A stretch of 64,000 bases of DNA. Source: Escherichia coli (GTDB taxonomy: Bacteria; Pseudomonadota; Gammaproteobacteria; Enterobacterales; Enterobacteriaceae). This document shows positions 16,221 to 39,306 of this stretch, piece by piece; the first letter of the stretch is position 1, and each line of letters opens with the position of its first letter. The position numbers and the translations under genes were made by a program. The stretch lies in assembly GCF_050920415.1 (NCBI RefSeq), contig NZ_CP169309.1. One strand, given 5' to 3'. The notes below the pieces were generated by a model. The model was not told where the DNA came from. It worked only from the letters and a program-made list of their open reading frames with translations, and did not search any database.

Positions 16221-16458
<238 letters not shown>

Positions 16459-27850: not shown

Positions 27851-28019
27851 CGTCTTCTTCCTCGTACATTGAGCTATTCGGATCGCTCATCAGTTCTGCG
27901 CAGCAATCTGAGCACACGTGAACTTCCAGCACATGCAGCTTCTGACCGCAGTTAGCGCACGTTAAAGCTCGCTCGACGCTTTCTTTCTGGTATTGAAGGG
28001 ATTGGGATGGGCTAAGCAT
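27843..28019 (-). CDS. ninF: NinF
   Basis: Hand-translated 58-aa [61 protein letters not shown] matches lambda NinF; below ORF-track cutoff. Confidence 0.75.
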
Positions 28020-28359
28020 TATTGGCGTCCTGCATCATGAGAAAGACAATCATGGCGGCGCGGAGAGGTCTGGTATCAAATATTGGGCTTACGCCTTTTG
28101 CATCCACACACCATTCAGTTAACTGGTCTAAGATAGAAATCCTGTGTTTCTCAATAATCGGCCATGAGGCACTCGGATCATTGCAGTAGTCAGGTAAATG
28201 GTTTAATGGCTCAAAAGTTGTATCAGCGTTTCCGTAATACCATTTGTTGGTATTATTCCCTGACGTTTCCGGCTTACATGCCCAAAGGCCCTTAAAAATT
28301 ATGTCTCCTACCATTCTGTTAATTTCAAAATCACTTAACTGTGAATAATCCATTGTCAT
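28012..28359 (-). CDS. nin-region hypothetical protein (NinX-like position)
   Basis: ORF 28012..28395; start uncertain (internal Met MTMDYSQ...). Confidence 0.45.
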
Positions 28360-28532
28360 TTCCTCGCACGATGTCTTAGCCACCGGATATCCCACAGGTG
28401 AGCCGTGTAGTTGAAGGTTTTTACGTCAGATTCTTTTGGGATTGGCTTGCGTTTATTTCTGGAGCGTTTCGTTGGAAGGTATTTGCAGTTTTCGCAGATG
28501 ATGTCGGTGAAACTTCGTCGCTGTCGTCTCAT
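28356..28532 (-). CDS. ninD: NinD-like zinc-finger protein
   Basis: ORF 28356..28592; C-terminal [47 protein letters not shown]; start placed at Met overlapping ninB stop. Confidence 0.6.
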
Positions 28533-28969
28533 GCCGCCCTGTCTCCCCATCGCGCTTTCCATTCGAGAGCCAGTCGCGCTTCGTCTGACCACTTAACGCC
28601 ACGCTCTGTACCGAATGCCTGTATAAGCTCTAATAGCTCCGCAAATTCGCTTACACGCATCCTGCTGGTTGACTGGCCTATTACCACAAAGCCATTCCCG
28701 GCAAGGTTAGGAACAACGTCCTGCTGCTTTAATGCTGCGGTAAAAACGCACTTCCAGCTTTCTGCATCCAGCCAGCGACCATGCCATTCAACCTGACGAG
28801 AGACGTCACCTAAGCAGGCCCATAGCTTCCTGTTTTGGTCTAAGCTGCGGTTGCGTTCCTGAATGGTTACTACGATTGGTTTGGTTGGGTCTGGAAGGAT
28901 TTGCTGTACTGCGTGAATAGCGTTTTGCTGATGTGCCGGAGATCGAATTTCAAAGGTTAGTTTTTTCAT
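28529..28969 (-). CDS. ninB: NinB recombination protein
   Basis: ORF 28529..28987; from [66 protein letters not shown]... matches lambda NinB. Confidence 0.88.
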
Positions 28970-29042
28970 GACTTCCCTCTCCCCCAAATAAAAAGGCCTG
29001 CGATTACCAGCAGGCCTGTTACAAGCTCAGTGATGTAGATGG

Positions 29043-30419
29043 TCATACGTCAGCCCCTTGTGCATATCGTCTGCCACGCGCAGCAGGTGCATTTGATGCT
29101 GTGCAAATCTGTCTGGCTTCATCCTGGTCACATGCCACAAAGTGTCCGTTGCAGAACCGCTGGTAAACCGTACCAAGCGAGCCAAAACGGTTTTTCGTCA
29201 CGATGATTTCAGCAAATGGCGCGGCGCTACTGTTCTCGTCATATACCGCTTCCCGATAGAGCATGATGATTGAGTCTGCGTCCTGTTCAATGCTTCCTGA
29301 ATCACGCAAATCTGCGTTTGTCGGGCGTTTATTTGGTCGCTTCTCAACATCGCGCGAAAGCTGACTTAGGGAGATAACAGGCGTTTTCAGGTCTTTCGCC
29401 ATCGCCTTCAGGCTTCCGGAGATGTGAGCAATTGCGAGGTCGTTGCGATCTGCTTTCGGCTTCTCAATCAGGCCAAGATAATCCGCCATGATGAGTGACA
29501 GGTTTGGATTTTCCTGTTTGTGCCGTTCTGCGATTGAGCGTATTTCTTCGACCGATAACCGCGAGGCATCGACTACCCATACATCCAAATCTGCAAGCTG
29601 ACTCATGCCGTTAGCAACACGCGCCCAGCCTTCGTCATCCATCGATGCAGGATTTCGCAGCACGCTAACCGACATCCTCCCGGCGTTGGCGATGCTTCGC
29701 TCTGCAATCTGCAATGCGCTCATTTCCATCGAGAAAATCAATACTCCGCGCCGGACGTCATAACCAGGAATAACGCGGCTTGCAACGCCTTCGGCAATCT
29801 TCAGCGCCAGTTCGGTTTTCCCCATACCAGGACGAGCAGCGATTATCACCAGGTCTTCTGCGTTCATCCCTCCGGTGATGGCATCAAGTTCTTCGATTCC
29901 GGTCTTCAGGGTATCGGACTCTTCTCCGTTCCTCAGACGCCTGTCAAGCGTGTCAGTGTAGTCAGTAATGATTTCCCATAACCGTACAGGTTTTACCTCG
30001 TCACGGGGCTTTCTGATGGCTGAAAGACGCTTTACAAGTTCATCCATCGCCTGACTCGATGCGTCGATGGTTCCGCTCTGAATTGGTTCACGCATTTCAT
30101 CCATGATTTCCAGCACCAGACGGCGGTGAAAGTTATCCGCGACCATTCCGGCATATCCCTTCAGGTTTGCGGCACTCGGGCAGTTTTTGCTGGTCATCAG
30201 GATTGACGTGAAATGCTCCTCTCCGCACGCCTCGGCAACCATCAGCGCGTCGATTAGGTTTCTGTTTCTCGCCTGCTTGCGGATAACCTCGAAGGCTTTC
30301 CGGTAGAGCGGAATTGAAAACGCTTCCGGCTCCAGCGTTGCCAGAACGTCACTGGCAGTTGGTGTTAATCCACCAATCAGCAGGCCACCGATAACGCTCG
30401 CTTCGATATCCTGTTTCAT
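29043..30419 (-). CDS. replicative DNA helicase (DnaB family; P22 gene 12-like)
   Basis: 458-aa ORF with Walker [18 protein letters not shown] and DnaB C-terminal motifs. Confidence 0.85.
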
Positions 30420-31363
30420 GCAATCCCCCTGTCTGCAAACTTCCCTTCCCGTACTCCCGTTAACGAATCTTCCCTCAACAGGTAATCAAAATCAGCTGTC
30501 CAGCCCGTGTCGTTGTCTCCGAAGTAAAACGGCTTGGCCTGATGCACAAACGCCCTGACATACGCTCTGAAACCGTCCACGTTTGGCGTTTTCAGCTGCG
30601 GGATGATTTTCTTCAGGCGGCGTTTTCGTTTCTCGTTGACCGCAACAGCGTGTGGAAGTCTGTCACCGACTTCGGTGTTGTAGGCGTTCAGGAAGGATTC
30701 GTAGTCGATTCGTTCTGCCTTGCGACGTTCAGGTTTAACCTGCCCATCGCCTCCCCCATTGGGGGGTAGGGGGGTATTATTTATATTCTTGTTAATACCT
30801 TCTTGTTCATGATGTGCGGTTGTTTGTGCGGCTTCATGTGCGCTTTCATGTGCGGCATGTACGCTGAAAGCCGCACCATTACTGGCTTCATCATGTGCGG
30901 AATCATGTGCGGTTGTTTGTGCGGCTTCATGTGCGGGTGAATTGTCCATTTTTTGAGCGTATTCATGGTAATTTGTGATGGTGATCACACGACCTTTTTG
31001 CTTCTCTCCATCAATGGTGATCATCCCCTCTTTCACAAAAACCTGAAGCATCCGCTCAACCTGATCACGGCTTGCCGGCTTGCCATGCCTGTCGCATAAC
31101 TGAAGACCTAAATCAGCTGCTGTCACAACCAGTTGACCGGGTTGCAGATGCCATTCATGACCTTTGAAATTCGCTTTGTATGGCTTTCTGGCGGCATTCA
31201 GGAGAAGGTTTTCCCACAGGGTGCGAAGATAAACATCTTTCGCCCATGACTGTTTCAGAATGCTCCGGTACAACGGAATGTAACCAGTTTTCTGGTTCTC
31301 CATCCTGTTGCTCCTGCGCTCGTGTGCGGCGCTGAAATCGTAGATTTTTGCTGTATTGCTCAT
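30416..31363 (-). CDS. replication initiator (lambda O / P22 gene 18-like) with internal origin
   Basis: 315-aa ORF; central His/Ala-rich repeats encoded by iteron DNA; sits immediately upstream of helicase. Confidence 0.7.
30805..30940. repeat. origin-like iteron array (about 8 copies of a TGTGCGG-core ~12-bp unit; 31-bp direct repeat at 30811 and 30904) with adjacent AT-rich tract
   Basis: Repeated tcatgtgcgg / tgtttgtgcgg units inside the initiator gene; AT-rich segment 30770-30805. Confidence 0.65.
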
Positions 31364-31365
31364 AA

Positions 31366-31638
31366 CTACCTGCCTTGACGAAAGACCTTAAGAACATCGT
31401 TAAACTGACTTACGGATATGTCTTCTTTGAGAAGCTTTTCCAGAAATGCGTTTGGAATGAACGTATATCCCTCCTCTTTTGGTAGAGACGGGAGCAACGC
31501 CCTCGCCTCAGCCTTCAGAAGCTCAGTTCTGGCAACTTTCACAAAAGAGATTTGAGTTCTTTCATCAATGGAACGAAGGAAGCGCAAACGCTTAGCTTCT
31601 TTGTGTGTATCAGGTGGATTAAAGCCTTTGTTTCGCAT
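31366..31638 (-). CDS. hypothetical 90-aa protein between cII and the initiator gene
   Basis: ORF 31366..31911, start placed at internal Met MRNKGFNPPDTHKEAKRLRF... to avoid overlap with cII. Confidence 0.4.
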   Translation of the reverse strand: MRNKGFNPPDTHKEAKRLRFLRSIDERTQISFVKVARTELLKAEARALLPSLPKEEGYTFIPNAFLEKLLKEDISVSQFNDVLKVFRQGR

Positions 31639-31660
31639 ATAATTACCTCGTTGGATGTTG

Positions 31661-31954
31661 TTAAAATTCCATTTGTATTTGATCAGAACGCTCGGTTGCC
31701 GCCGGGCGTTTTTTATTGGTGAGAATCGAAGCAACTTGTCGTGCCAATCGAGCCATGTCGTCGTCAACGACGCCCCATTCAAGAACAGCAAGCAGCATTG
31801 AGAACTTTGGAATCCAATCCCTCTTCCACCTGCTGATCTGCGACTTATCAACTCCCACAGCTTCCGCTGTCTTCTCAGTTCCAAGCATTGCGATTTTGTT
31901 AAGCAACGCACTCTCGATTCTTAGAGCCTCGTTGCGTTTGTTTGCACGAACCAT
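31661..31954 (-). CDS. cII: transcriptional activator CII (lambda-type)
   Basis: ORF 31661..32041; from MVRANKRNEALRIESALLNKIAMLGTEKTAEAVGVDKSQISRWKRDWIPKFSMLLAVLEWGVVDDDMARLARQV... matches lambda CII. Confidence 0.9.
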   Translation of the reverse strand: MVRANKRNEALRIESALLNKIAMLGTEKTAEAVGVDKSQISRWKRDWIPKFSMLLAVLEWGVVDDDMARLARQVASILTNKKRPAATERSDQIQMEF

Positions 31955-32012
31955 ATGTAAGTATTTCCTTAACAAATAAGAAGTTATGCGCATCAACTTA
32001 TGCGCGTTGTAT

Positions 32013-32056
32013 TCCCGCATTTCGGCGGGAATGAGGACCATGACTGTTAAAGAGCG
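32013..32056 (-). promoter_or_regulatory. nutR (boxA CGCTCTTTAACA + boxB hairpin TCCCGCCGAAATGCGGGA)
   Basis: Read on minus strand just downstream of cro; boxB identical to the nutL copy. Confidence 0.7.
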
Positions 32057-32063
32057 GTGTTAC

Positions 32064-32288
32064 TTATGCTGCCTGATTCGGTTTTGGAAACAGGTGTGGC
32101 AAATCGGGGCGAATTTCGTAAGCCTTGATCTGCCCTCCAGTGGCGTTAACGATGGCGGTAACTTTCTCTGGAGAGACCAATCCGCCTTTCAGCCATTTGT
32201 GTACTGCTGGCTGCGTTACACCACACTTGTCGGCAAGGCGCTTTTGGCTACCGACAATTTTCAAGGCTCGTTGAATTACTAAATTCAT
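32064..32288 (-). CDS. Cro-like HTH repressor
   Basis: ORF 32064..32309; MNLVIQRALKIVGSQKRLADKCGVTQPAVHKWLKGG...; divergent from repressor gene; start chosen by SD spacing. Confidence 0.7.
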   Translation of the reverse strand: MNLVIQRALKIVGSQKRLADKCGVTQPAVHKWLKGGLVSPEKVTAIVNATGGQIKAYEIRPDLPHLFPKPNQAA

Positions 32289-32312
32289 GAGCATACCTCT
32301 TGTGGTCATTGA

Positions 32313-32390
32313 TTATAACCAAAGATAACTCAAGTTATAAAAAATAGCAATAACCTTTGTTATTTTACTTTGGATAACCGTAGTTATAGA
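32313..32390. promoter_or_regulatory. OR operator cluster with pR/pRM: three 14-bp palindromes ATAAC-N4-GTTAT
   Basis: ataactcaagttat (32325-32338), ataacctttgttat (32350-32363), ataaccgtagttat (32374-32387); putative pR -35 TTGCTA / -10 TATCTT on minus strand. Confidence 0.65.
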
Positions 32391-32399
32391 TTTGTGGGT

Positions 32400-33107
32400 A
32401 TGAAAACATTCGCAGAAAGACTAAATGCAGCCATGAGCTTAGCTGGGGTATCACAATCACAGCTTGCAGACATGGTTGGAATATCTCAGCCAGCCATACA
32501 GAAGATGTCGTCCGGTAAAACAAACGGATCTCGCAAGATGGTTGAATTAGCCAATGCTTTAAAAGTGCGCCCTGAATGGCTTAGTTCTGGTATTGGTGAA
32601 ATGAGGGATGGTGCACATGAAGAACCATCCAATGTCCGTGAGTCATCTTTAAAAGCTGTGGTATGGGAAGACATTAAAAGAAACGATGACGAGTTTGTTG
32701 CGTTGCCTCTTCTTAACGTTTCGCTTTCAGCTGGAAGCGGTAGCTGCGAGCTAGAGGAATCATCGGAGTTCTCTTTGGTTTTCAGAAAGCACTATCTGAA
32801 AAAGATGGGAGTATCTGAAAGATCAGCCAAGCTAGTTAGGGTTGTAGGGCAAAGCATGGAACCTACGCTTCACGATGGCGATGTTGTTGGTGTTAACACG
32901 CAAGATACCACAATCAGAGATGGTAAAACCTACGCTATTTGCCAGTCTGATTTGTTACGAGTAAAAACATTAATCGCCACCCCTACATCGGTGATAATCA
33001 GATCAATAAATCGCGAAGAGTACCCGGATGAAGTAATGGATAGAGATGAATTTCATGAAACCGTAAGGATTATTGGCAGAGTATTCTGGTCGTCTCATAG
33101 TTGGTAA
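32400..33107 (+). CDS. CI-type prophage repressor (N-terminal HTH, C-terminal LexA/S24 autocleavage domain)
   Basis: ORF 32370..33107; MKTFAERLNAAMSLAGVSQSQLADMVGISQPAIQKM... and C-terminal GQSMEPTLHDGDVVGV motif. Confidence 0.85.
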   Translation: MKTFAERLNAAMSLAGVSQSQLADMVGISQPAIQKMSSGKTNGSRKMVELANALKVRPEWLSSGIGEMRDGAHEEPSNVRESSLKAVVWEDIKRNDDEFVALPLLNVSLSAGSGSCELEESSEFSLVFRKHYLKKMGVSERSAKLVRVVGQSMEPTLHDGDVVGVNTQDTTIRDGKTYAICQSDLLRVKTLIATPTSVIIRSINREEYPDEVMDRDEFHETVRIIGRVFWSSHSW

Positions 33108-33147
33108 CCGATAATCAGAAGAAGACTTACGGAAGTGCGGAGGGATA

Positions 33148-33444
33148 ATGGAATTTCTGATAGTTTTTGTTGTTGTTTTGGTCATCATTCTTTTTGTTTT
33201 GCTAAGCATTAGCAAAAAGCTATCTCAAATGATTGAACATAGCTCTAATCGCGCAAAAGAAGAAGAGCATCTAATTGATATAAAAGAGATTCTCTCTGAT
33301 ATAAAAATCACATTAGATGAAATAAAATACACAACAGATCTAATTGAACAGTATAAAATACCAACCCCAAACGAGAGAAAATCAATAGATCAATATCGTA
33401 TTGACTTAGAAATCGACGAAATGCTAAGCAACAGAAAGGACTAA
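33148..33444 (+). CDS. 98-aa single-pass membrane protein co-transcribed with repressor (candidate superinfection-exclusion/abortive-infection moron)
   Basis: SD GGAGGG then ATG 33148, 40 nt after cI stop; MEFLIVFVVVLVIILFVLLSISKK... TM helix then charged helical tail; very AT-rich; terminator follows. Confidence 0.6.
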   Translation: MEFLIVFVVVLVIILFVLLSISKKLSQMIEHSSNRAKEEEHLIDIKEILSDIKITLDEIKYTTDLIEQYKIPTPNERKSIDQYRIDLEIDEMLSNRKD

Positions 33445-33447
33445 AAA

Positions 33448-33474
33448 CACCCGGCCTCAGCGCCGGGTTTTTCT
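33448..33474 (+). terminator. rho-independent terminator after the cI-linked moron
   Basis: Stem CCCGGC/GCCGGG with 5-nt loop followed by TTTTTCTTTC. Confidence 0.65.
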
Positions 33475-33597
33475 TTCCCTGCCGTTCACCATCCAATCAA
33501 CCATCCTCATCATAGACAAGCATCAAGCCAAAGGTAACACCTTCACCCAGCACGCAAGCCCTCAAACACCAATCAATCAGCAACATTTACAAAAATA

Positions 33598-33690
33598 AAA
33601 TACCTTTGTTATCCATCACTTATAACTTATTTACCACAAAATATAAATTAGGTTATTGACCACACCTATAACCTAAGTTATCTTTAAGCC
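33598..33690. promoter_or_regulatory. OL operators and pL promoter (-35 TTGACC 33656-33661, -10 TATCTT 33679-33684)
   Basis: Operator palindrome ataacctaagttat (33668-33681) overlapping spacer and -10; second half-matching site atacctttgttat near 33600. Confidence 0.6.
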
Positions 33691-33728
33691 ATCAGCAGGA
33701 AGCTGGTAGCCAAACGGAACAGATTGGC

Positions 33729-33769
33729 AGGCTCTTTAACATTGATGGGATTGTCCCGCCGAAATGCGG
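33729..33769 (+). promoter_or_regulatory. nutL (boxA GCTCTTTAACA + boxB hairpin TCCCGCCGAAATGCGGGA)
   Basis: Between pL and N start; same boxA/boxB as nutR. Confidence 0.7.
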
Positions 33770-33878
33770 GAACCAAAGAGTAGTTGGCTTTGGGGTGACG
33801 TGAAGTGCAGCTGCACGACGGCAACCGGAAGATAAGCACCCGGCGCGTCACCGCCAAAGTCAATCATCGGAGGTCAAC

Positions 33879-34184
33879 ATGGCAGTAGTCATTACATATC
33901 TGGCTGACGATAACGCCAGAAATCGCCGCAGAGCACGCAGGCAGGCTCAACGTGAACAGGCAATGCAAGAACAGCGACTGGCGCGAAAGATTGCGCTAAA
34001 GCTCTCTGGTTGCGTCAGAGCAGATAAAGCAGCATCACTCGGAAGCCTTCGCTGCAAGAAGGTAGAAGAAGTCGAGCGTAAACAGAACCGTATTTACTAC
34101 CGAAAGCCACGGAGTGAAATGGGTGTGACATGCTCAGGCCGCCAGAAGCAACGCGGAAAATCAATTCCAGCTTATTACGATTGA
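33879..34184 (+). CDS. N: antitermination protein N (arginine-rich motif; phage 21 N-like)
   Basis: 101-aa ORF; NARNRRRARRQAQREQ arginine-rich N-terminus; LARKIALKLSGCVRADKAASLGSLRCKK...EVERKQNRIYY resembles phage 21 N as recalled. Confidence 0.7.
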   Translation: MAVVITYLADDNARNRRRARRQAQREQAMQEQRLARKIALKLSGCVRADKAASLGSLRCKKVEEVERKQNRIYYRKPRSEMGVTCSGRQKQRGKSIPAYYD

Positions 34185-34932: not shown

Positions 34933-35820
34933 TCAGGCTGCCAGATCATTGTTTCCGATGGAAGCATAATAAGCTTTTTCTGCTTCTGCCGGAGGAGTAT
35001 GGCCCAGCCTTCCCAGCAATCGTCGATTGTTATACCAGTCCACCCACGTGAGTGTGGCCAGTTCCACTTCTGCACGGTTTTTCCAGCTCTTACGGTGTAT
35101 TACCTCCGCTTTGTAAAGACCATTGATGCTCTCAGCCATCGCGTTGTCATACGAGTCGCCTGTACTCCCTGTTGATGCCAGCAGTTTTGCTTCTTTTAGT
35201 CGCTCCGTATAGGCCAGTGACACATACTGAGAGCCTTTATCGCTGTGATGGATGGTGCCAGACGGACGACGGGCCCACAACGCCTGCTCCAGCGCATCCA
35301 GCACGAATGTCGTTTCCATAGACGATGAGACCCGCCACCCCACGATGTATCCGGCAAACACATCAATGATGAACGCCACATAGACGAAGCCCTGCCATGT
35401 GCTGACGTAAGTAAAATCAGCCACCCACAGCTGGTCAGGACGTTCTGCCACGAACTGACGGTTTACGCGGTCACCTGTGGCAACGGTTTTCCGGCTGACG
35501 GTAGTGCGGACCTTTTTACCCCGGAGAACACCGGCAAGTCCCATAACCGCCATGAGGCGCGCCACTGTACATCTGGCCACCCTGATTCCTTCCCGTAACA
35601 ACTGACGCCAGACTTTACGCACACCGTACACCTGATGATTTTCATCGTATACGCGCTGTATCTCTCTCTTCAGCCAGTCATCGCGCTGCGCACGGGCACT
35701 GCGTTTATCAGGATGATGCCGCTGCTGCTGACAATGGTAATACGTTGACGGGGCGATATGCAGTTCACTGCATACCGGTCCGACCCCGTACTGCTCACGC
35801 AGCTTATCCAGCAGTGGCAT
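34933..35820 (-). CDS. IS3-family transposase OrfB (DDE integrase domain)
   Basis: 295-aa ORF with DDE-type catalytic region; overlaps orfA end as expected for programmed -1 frameshift fusion. Confidence 0.85.
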   Translation of the reverse strand: MPLLDKLREQYGVGPVCSELHIAPSTYYHCQQQRHHPDKRSARAQRDDWLKREIQRVYDENHQVYGVRKVWRQLLREGIRVARCTVARLMAVMGLAGVLRGKKVRTTVSRKTVATGDRVNRQFVAERPDQLWVADFTYVSTWQGFVYVAFIIDVFAGYIVGWRVSSSMETTFVLDALEQALWARRPSGTIHHSDKGSQYVSLAYTERLKEAKLLASTGSTGDSYDNAMAESINGLYKAEVIHRKSWKNRAEVELATLTWVDWYNNRRLLGRLGHTPPAEAEKAYYASIGNNDLAA

Positions 35821-38826: not shown

Positions 38827-39306
38827 ATGAAAATCTGCTCAAGATGCCATCAACAGAAGGAAGAAAGGGACTTTCAAATCAGAAGAGCATCCAGAGATGG
38901 ATTAACTGCCGCTTGCCGGGCTTGCCTGGCTGAATATGACAAAGAGCGCGCGGGATTGCCACATCGAGTATCAGCAAGGAGAGAATATCAATCATCGGAA
39001 CGCGGCAGAGAACGGTGTAACGCAGCCAAAAAGCGGTTCATTCAGAGCAACCCATGGAAAAGAAAAGCCCACATCATCGTGGGTAATTTTTTGCGCGACG
39101 GTAAGCTAATCCGACCACCACAATGTGAGTGCTGCGGATCAGAATGTAAACCACAGGCGCACCACTGCGACTACAGCAAACCAACCGATGTGATGTGGCT
39201 CTGCAAGTCATGTCATGTCGAGTGGCACAAACATAACAAACCTATCTACCCAGACGAGGAGCCAGTAACTCTCCCCTTCCCTCGTCACGCTATTCACGCA
39301 ATTTAA
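38827..39306 (+). CDS. Cys-rich protein with C-terminal HNH endonuclease-like motif
   Basis: 159-aa ORF; CxxC pairs and HHCDYSKPTDVMWLCKSCHVEWH. Confidence 0.55.
   Translation: MKICSRCHQQKEERDFQIRRASRDGLTAACRACLAEYDKERAGLPHRVSARREYQSSERGRERCNAAKKRFIQSNPWKRKAHIIVGNFLRDGKLIRPPQCECCGSECKPQAHHCDYSKPTDVMWLCKSCHVEWHKHNKPIYPDEEPVTLPFPRHAIHAI

Follow-up and report, generated by a model that had tools for sequence, protein, structure and literature searches.

Does the cluster of short repeats that lies inside an O-like gene of Escherichia coli contig NZ_CP169309.1 mark the place where a prophage starts its replication, or is it a repetitive stretch of coding sequence with no role as DNA? The cluster is found at ∼30.8 kb of the 64,000-nucleotide stretch that we analysed (the window), on the minus strand, in the early-right operon of a lambdoid prophage that comprises a cro-like gene, cII, a small open reading frame (ORF), a Phage_rep_O initiator gene and a gene for a DnaB-type helicase. 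Comparison with relatives and with annotated origins makes it very probable that a P22/CUS-3-like lambdoid prophage has its vegetative replication origin in this cluster, within its O-like initiator gene (315 amino acids (aa), 30416–31363, minus strand, recognized by its ORF and PF04492 match), as a preliminary description of this sequence had proposed, and there in the middle part, which codes for a linker. By analogy with ori-lambda, the N-terminal domain of the initiator would bind eight CCGCACA units arranged as two arrays of four, the resulting nucleoprotein complex would strain and open the adjoining 33-bp AT-rich tract, and the C-terminal domain, of the P22 gp18/HK97 gp54 type, would bring in the phage's own DnaB-type helicase, which is encoded immediately downstream.

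The gene carries eight 12-bp units with the core CCGCACA on the gene strand, seven of them exact and one GCGCACA. On the plus strand they appear as TGTGCGG at 30813, 30825, 30849, 30894, 30906, 30918 and 30930 and as TGTGCGC at 30837; about eight copies of a ∼12-bp unit with this core had been noticed before, and both the number and the period hold. Tandem Repeats Finder also detects period 12 in both halves, and self-identity peaks at lags 12 (0.53), 24 (0.47) and 36 (0.40) versus ∼0.25 at other lags. Seven of the 13 exact TGTGCGG copies present on both strands of the whole 64 kb fall inside 124 bp (Poisson estimate ∼6e–12). One other 7-mer cluster of comparable size was found in the window, a plain hexanucleotide tandem at 16.27 kb, and no second repeat array of the kind described here.

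The units form two blocks. Block 1 (30889–30936, minus strand) is composed of CCGCACATGAAG, CCGCACAAACAA, CCGCACATGATT and CCGCACATGATG, each core being read as NCC-GCA-CA(T/A); a 33-bp centre follows (AAGCCAGTAATGGTGCGGCTTTCAGCGTACATG, 30856–30888, minus strand), its length constant across the family, and then block 2 (30808–30855, minus strand) with CCGCACATGAAA, GCGCACATGAAG, CCGCACAAACAA and CCGCACATCATG. Units 6–8 with their flanks copy units 1–3, which gives an exact 31-bp direct repeat at 30812–30842 and 30905–30935, one base away from the positions 30811 and 30904 reported initially. The presumed DNA-unwinding element, an AT-rich tract of 33 bp (30775–30807, minus strand, 18% GC), begins right after unit 8. 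It is purine-rich on the coding strand, and only 0.14% of 33-nt segments in the 64 kb are as AT-rich. The preliminary description had an AT-rich segment follow the array in the direction of reading, which is correct, but its limits of 30770–30805 are better replaced by those given here. It also had the tract flanked by G runs. These do exist (30761–30766 and 30769–30774), on one side only, as part of a C/G-run palindrome that is tied to the C-terminal module (CCCCCCTACCCCCCAATGGGGG on the gene strand, 30753–30774, minus strand) and that is completed by CCCCC at 30753–30757, its arms being 30753–30757 and 30761–30765. Within the tract the motif AACAAGAA occurs twice, at 30800–30807 and 30786–30793, 14 bp apart.

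Two minor observations concern the units. A further exact TGTGCGG (CCGCACA on the gene strand) is located at 31323–31329, in the same orientation, 34 nt from the start of the initiator gene, perhaps by chance. An 18-nt stretch at 30544–30561, in the part coding for the C-terminal domain, is 78% complementary to two iteron units. To judge from the sequences this is probably a coincidence, since that part of the gene is shared with HK97, whose iterons are different. A scan of 28000–34000 against Rfam gave nothing at E up to 0.1.

Translation of the ORF turns the repeats into an Ala/His-rich segment, as noted earlier. The array could accordingly be viewed as a low-complexity linker that grows and shrinks by slippage, under selection at the protein level or under none, and that plays no part as DNA. 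Such a linker would be expected to look much as the segment does at first sight: it is predicted to be disordered, it changes length in steps of 4 and 31 codons, and no other part of the gene is as polymorphic, 28% of its sites being variable among 48 distinct alleles of the 948-nt initiator gene collected from viral contigs. We nevertheless consider this explanation extremely unlikely, as the choice of codons preserves the nucleotide core. The units have the form NnC-GCA-CA(T/A). In the window, Klebsiella ST16-OXA48phi5.2 and Yersinia vB_YenM_29.18 taken together, the Ala codon of the core is GCA in 21 of 22 units, while the remainder of these genes uses GCA for 13 of 71 Ala codons (Fisher exact test, p 5e–11). 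The residue before this Ala may be P, A, T, S, C or G, and its codon invariably ends in C. Among the 48 alleles, 6 of 49 core sites are variable compared with 32 of 86 non-core sites (p 0.0025), and the AT tract together with the palindrome has one variable site in 56. Conservation in homologous genes likewise lies at the DNA level: the O genes of the Klebsiella and Yersinia phages, which are only 74–80% identical in the N-terminal domain, preserve the CCGCACA cores and differ in the amino acids encoded between them. Because codon choice keeps the core bases while the encoded amino acids vary, these comparisons indicate that selection acts on the core DNA and not on the peptide. Some relatives carry 11-bp units (TTGTCCAACGG), which are mutually out of frame, encode non-repetitive peptides and therefore cannot be peptide repeats. 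Also hard to reconcile with a mere linker are blocks that are alike within a genome and completely different between lineages, and an AT tract of extreme composition that always comes next. With cores that depend on codon choice, replacing the eight Ala codons by synonymous ones would be expected to abolish the origin without any change to the initiator protein.

The position of the origin relative to the protein agrees with that in lambda. PF04492 (Phage_rep_O) matches aa 20–132 of the initiator with an E-value of 3.6e–15, above the curated cutoff of Pfam. The gene is 98% identical to the O or replication-protein genes of CUS-3, JEP4, Gally, HF4s and of 48 records of phages converting to Shiga toxin (Stx) 2a. 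An AlphaFold2 model, made from an input alignment of 24 sequences, shows two confident domains: aa 30–137 have a predicted local distance difference test score (pLDDT) of 75–93 and a helix/strand pattern, and the C-terminal domain (aa 216–311) scores 87–94. The sole internal segment of low confidence is aa 138–215 between them (pLDDT 27–39). The origin encodes aa 143–204, wholly within this segment, and is thus predicted by the model to code for a disordered inter-domain linker; such a placement agrees with the flexible linker that joins the DNA-binding and P-binding domains of lambda O (PMC6022878). Together, Pfam and AlphaFold2 outline the presumed iteron-binding N-terminal domain (∼aa 20–137, 30953–31306, minus strand), while sequence identity and AlphaFold2 outline a C-terminal domain of the P22 gp18/HK97 gp54 type (∼aa 216–311, 30431–30718, minus strand) that presumably recruits the helicase. 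Foldseek against the PDB gave weak matches, mostly to winged-helix DNA-binding domains (best E 0.05), which is suggestive, not significant. A sequence search of PDB chains with the initiator returned nothing at E up to 1, and an NCBIfam search gave no match. It should be noted that the start of the protein (31334–31363) is close to MTNTAKILNF of lambda O, while the rest of the N-terminal domain is divergent, and that many database entries begin the initiator at Met21 (295 aa) and so leave out the N-terminal peptide.

How close is the locus to origins that are already known? In lambda, O dimers assemble on inverted-repeat iterons and the neighbouring 40-bp AT-rich region is opened (PMC5043065, PMC6022878, PMC7466680). 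The lambda record annotates four iterons at 39034–39118 inside O, with the AT tract next. As in ori-lambda, the putative origin of the window occupies a central part of the initiator gene, the one that codes for the linker between the domains (PMC7466680, PMC6022878, PMC5043065); initiator-specific repeats are followed, in the direction of transcription, by an AT-rich tract (∼35–40 bp) that is purine-rich on the coding strand; and the N-terminal domain carries the repeat specificity whereas the C-terminal one makes the connection to the helicase. The lambda-like architecture claimed in the preliminary description is therefore right as to order, repeats and then AT tract in mid-initiator, and not as to the repeats themselves, which are not dyad-symmetric 19-bp iterons. 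Lambda has four inverted-repeat iterons of 18–19 bp (TCCCTC-N5-GAGGGA), each for one O dimer, whereas the window has eight 12-bp head-to-tail units in two blocks around a 33-bp centre. Besides, lambda O works with P and host DnaB, while the initiator of the window is paired with a phage-encoded DnaB-type helicase.

P22 and HK97 share more of the right half of the locus. In the P22 record BK000583 a rep_origin is annotated at 32840–32984 inside gene 18 as 'similar to phage lambda'. Its right end, AAATACAAATACCCCCTTACCCCCTAAAGGGGG, aligns with AAATAATACCCCCCTACCCCCCAATGGGGG of the window, and the palindrome of the window is homologous to P22 CCCCCTTACCCCCTAAAGGGGG, which straddles the right end of the annotated feature. 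Alignment to the lambda and P22 origins, suggested earlier as a check, thus connects the end of the AT tract and the palindrome to the P22 rep_origin, but leaves the iterons unrelated to those of P22. Common to the origins of P22 gene 18, HK97 gp54 and the window are the family of the C-terminal domain, a DnaB-type helicase downstream and a right end of the form AAATA-CCCCC(C)T(T)ACCCCC(C)-N3-4-GGGGG. They differ in the N-terminal sequence, unrelated over most of its length, in the iterons, which are dyads in P22 (TTTACC-N5-GGTAAA) and HK97 (ATTAGCT-N5-AGCTAAT), and in the motif of the AT tract, which is ACAAAAGACAAT twice in P22 and HK97, at the same spacing as the AACAAGAA pair of the window.

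The units might bind the initiator mainly for the sake of control (autoregulation, titration, incompatibility or exclusion of related phages), with replication starting elsewhere in the prophage. Plasmid and lambda iterons do have secondary roles of this sort; plasmid-borne lambda iterons together with oop inhibit phages of the lambda replication type (PMC3349717), and the extra core copy near the 5′ end of the gene (31323–31329) would fit as well. We regard a mainly regulatory array as very unlikely, however: no tract of the replication module is more AT-rich than the one that directly adjoins the array, in the order known from lambda, the right half of the locus is homologous to the annotated P22 origin, and the window has no other repeat array.

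While the arrangement of a replication origin is lambda-like, the binding mode would be different. We looked for inverted repeats with arms of at least 5 bp and a spacer of up to 9 nt: the arrays of lambda, P22 and HK97 give 6–8 hits each, those of the window, KpST16, L008 and BHUENT3 none. Because the units are 12 bp long, head to tail and without internal dyad, they are probably occupied by one protein copy each, also head to tail, and not by lambda-style dimers on palindromic 19-mers. From their sequence they look like single half-sites placed head to tail, nearer in logic to the direct repeats of iteron plasmids (PMC5043065). RK2, P1, R6K and pSC101 also have direct non-palindromic repeats, a replicon-specific initiator and an adjoining AT-rich tract (PMC5043065). 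Their iterons, however, are ∼17–22 bp long, lie outside the rep gene and are served by Rep proteins of another family (Rep_3/RepA-type), whereas the units of the window have 12 bp, lie inside the gene and are accompanied by a protein that matches only PF04492.

Among phages, the central part of the initiator gene has been described to contain repeats in lambda, P22 and L, different ones in each (PMC8022706). Gene 18 of phage L contains six imprecise 11-bp repeats (TGTCCAACGGA), proposed as the likely origin (PMC8022706), and resembles the window: according to the published description it has short non-palindromic direct repeats in an O-like gene that is paired with a DnaB-type helicase, although with a period of 11 instead of 12 bp and another core. 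The relatives with TTGTCCAACGG-type units (L146, mEpX2/HK106 type), which have two three-unit blocks with a centre and an AT tract, match this description. The N-terminal domain of the window aligns over its whole length with those of the TGTCCAACGG type and shares invariant positions with them at only ∼25% identity. The six-iteron origins of the Stx phages 933W and P27 are also located inside a Shiga-toxin phage O gene, with extra repeats that lengthen the protein (PMC7466680). They are, in contrast, true lambda-type iterons used with O and P; the window has another N-terminal domain, other units and a DnaB-type helicase. A lambdoid origin in the initiator gene is hence of a known kind, and its short direct-repeat sort has already been noted in passing for phage L.

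The layout of the locus is that of a family. Relatives were collected in two scans of viral contigs, down to 26% identity, and nearly all follow one plan: an N-terminal domain ending in ITNYxEYQ, two to six 12-bp units, the 33-bp centre, like units again and an AT tract. Any one genome has matching units in both blocks, while the units differ among lineages, being CCGCACA, CCGTCGAA, CCGATGA, GGTAACA, GGTACAC or TGTCCAA. The offset from block to block is 69+12n bp, and 66 bp in the lineages with 11-bp units. Similarity of the cores tracks identity of the N-terminal domains (Mantel r 0.48, reached by 0 of 5000 permutations); pairs with N-terminal identity >70% usually share the core, pairs with <60% almost never do. 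The core is independent of the type of C-terminal domain, which may be P22/HK97-type, lambda-type with P, or of at least one more kind. The AACAAGAA pair recurs in most relatives at a distance of 14–15 bp, whatever their iterons. Of 38 lineages, 30 have an inverted repeat with a stem of at least 5 bp directly after the AT tract, versus 22% of control windows, and the arms come in 17 different sequences: CCCCC/GGGGG, CCCAC/GTGGG and CTTATTACC/GGTAATAAG are examples in which the symmetry is kept and the sequence changes (window 30753–30774, loci L092–L150). Support for the palindrome comes from this recurrence with different arms, and not from hairpin energy. Among entries L008 (OR850084.1) and L009 (OR850760.1), one record has an unexpected name: 'Staphylococcus phage SA 1298 Kay' (2.7 kb, UNVERIFIED_ORG) encodes an O-like initiator identical to that of Salmonella phage S.Inf 5-2 and a DnaB-type helicase; it is a fragment of an enterobacterial lambdoid phage and probably mislabelled.

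The origin is also the place where modules have been exchanged. Residues 190–315 are 97.6% identical to HK97 gp54 and to many P22-like and Stx phages by tblastn, and the N-termini of all these differ. Identity to P22 gp18 is 60.5% over residues 190–312, and tblastn similarity to P22 and HK97 is limited to aa 190–315. Residues 3–163, on the other side, are 71–80% identical to O proteins of Klebsiella and Yersinia phages, which have a lambda-type C-terminus and a P gene. These O genes have CCGCACA units like those of the window, whereas HK97 and P22 have dyad-symmetric iterons of their own. The junction between the module of N-terminal domain, iterons and AT tract and that of palindrome, C-terminal domain and helicase lies at 30774–30781 by both breakpoints: similarity to ST16-OXA48phi5.2, which has the same N-terminus, stops there, and similarity to HK97, which has the same C-terminus, starts. 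Since this is where the AT tract ends on its right side, an exchange of the N-terminal domain takes along the iterons and most of the tract, whereas the palindrome goes with the C-terminal domain and the helicase.

The 33-bp centre behaves differently from the units. Its consensus AAA-CCC-AGT-nnT-GGC-GCG-GCT-TTG-AAG is kept, synonymous sites included, in lineages that have unrelated iterons, 45–65% N-terminal identity and different C-terminal domains. Codon choice is narrow (GGC 20/21, GCG 19/22, AAA 18/19), and CC before AGT stays while the residue changes between P, A, S, L and T; in the N-terminal domain, the third positions of conserved Gly, Ala, Val and Thr codons mostly have 1.3–2.0 bits of entropy. 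For the centre, p is 0.016 in a rank test on four-fold sites, a value that comes from only two centre columns. We found no DnaA box in the centre and no recognisable IHF site, the latter compared by eye. The idea that the centre is an inverted iteron, because its GGTGCGG resembles the reverse complement of the core, was rejected, as the same centre is found in lineages with CCGATGA, GTCGAA, GGTAACA and GGTACAC units.

It is possible, though we put it forward only tentatively and with more doubt than trust, that these loci make up an architectural class of their own among O-type origins, one widely distributed in lambdoid phages of enterobacteria, with two arrays of 11–12-bp head-to-tail non-palindromic units, each bound by one protein and not by dimers, around a fixed 33-bp centre (AAACCCAGTnnTGGCGCGGCTTTGAAG) held at the DNA level. 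If so, a second, lineage-independent recognition element, either the site of a host factor or one for a conserved surface of the initiator, would organise both arrays. The pattern CCAGYNNTGGCGCGGYTT of the centre was tried as a diagnostic of such origins and dropped: it occurs in 110 distinct contexts in viral contigs, only 24–27 of which are O-like origins, and the remaining contexts are unrelated, as chance alone would yield for a ∼30-bit pattern in such a collection. The same pattern was seen in two recurrent, apparently non-coding contexts unrelated to O genes (L168, L173, L174, L212; L156, L183, L206), for which ARAGORN reported no tRNA or tmRNA and Rfam no match (L173, L212 and L156).

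The array varies in length in nature. In protein clusters P0001, P0007, P0038, P0046 and P0061 we found alleles with one block (284/264 aa), two (315/295 aa), three (346/326 aa) and four (357 aa from an internal start). The two-block allele is by far the commonest; one block with the centre corresponds to 31 codons, and single 4-codon (12-bp) units are also gained and lost. All 61 deposited phage records with the repeat type of the window have two blocks, and none of them covers the single-block junction in one piece. For lambda, two iterons are enough in vitro, those closest to the AT tract (PMC7466680).

The copy in the window could be an origin by descent that is now inactive in a decayed prophage. 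An IS3-family transposase gene (34933–35820) ∼1.8 kb past the repressor gene and the varying block number among bacterial genomes would suit such decay. Still, the initiator and helicase genes are both intact, the copy has the same two-block form as all the phage records just mentioned, and its identity to deposited genomes of phages, CUS-3, JEP4, Gally and Kapi1 among them, is 98–99%, so that we consider loss of function unlikely, if less so than the two other alternatives discussed above.

Several points weigh against our assignment of the locus as a replication origin. No experiment locating the origin of this prophage, or of any phage with an initiator of such type, was found in the literature, and the annotation of the P22 origin itself rests on 'similarity with lambda'. 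The units have none of the dyad symmetry of lambda, P22 and HK97 iterons, and therefore the model of O-dimer binding is not directly transferable. Co-variation of the core with the N-terminal domain is weaker evidence than it looks, since physical linkage alone gives some signal. One-, three- and four-block alleles occur in bacterial genomes, which means that the array is recombinationally unstable and block number variable there. Two minor supporting checks were weak: as a hairpin the palindrome (–9.7 kcal/mol, z –1.5) is energetically not exceptional, and no DnaA box is present in the origin at up to one mismatch, the total in the window being not above chance and the nearest box lying inside the helicase gene.

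That an origin resides inside the initiator gene is textbook knowledge for lambda, and the general picture does not change with our results. They are of use for annotation, as they place the likely origin of a replication module that is common to 280 of 5426 complete E. coli genomes (∼5%) and to the 48 Stx2a-converting phage records, which have this type of origin. In the records inspected, CUS-3 for example, no origin is annotated at the site, and we found no description of a CCGCACA-type origin in the literature. The layout of the family, direct 12-bp units, a centre, paired AACAAGAA motifs and a variable palindrome, amounts to a natural series on the opening of DNA by sites without dyad symmetry. 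The only parts that might repay experiments are the conserved centre and the non-palindromic 12-bp phasing.

The surroundings are those of a lambdoid prophage. Downstream of the initiator gene, the gene of the phage DnaB-type replicative helicase (29043–30419, minus strand) matches DnaB_C of Pfam with E 1.2e–77 and the DnaB N-terminal domain with E 4e–13; its start overlaps the stop of the initiator gene in ATGA (30416–30419). Upstream come the small ORF of 90 aa (MRNKGFNPPDTHKEAKRL..., 31366–31638, minus strand), cII (31661–32041, minus strand), the cro-like gene (32064–32309, minus strand) and an S24 repressor gene (32370–33107) that is divergent from the cro/cII/initiator operon. The 90-aa ORF, which lies between the initiator gene and cII, corresponds in position to P22 orf48 and HK97 gp53; it has no Pfam match, and the CUS-3 record leaves this interval without annotation. 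The IS3-family transposase gene mentioned above (minus strand, rve and HTH_21 domains) is inserted beyond the early-left N-like gene of the prophage. Finally, the hexanucleotide tandem met in the search for 7-mer clusters is a perfect (CTGGCT)7 on the plus strand at 16269–16312, which gives a 102-aa ORF a terminal (EP)n and can also be read as (QS)n; it is located upstream of a homologue of the P22 tail accessory factor gp4 (Pfam P22_Tail-4, E 9e–58).

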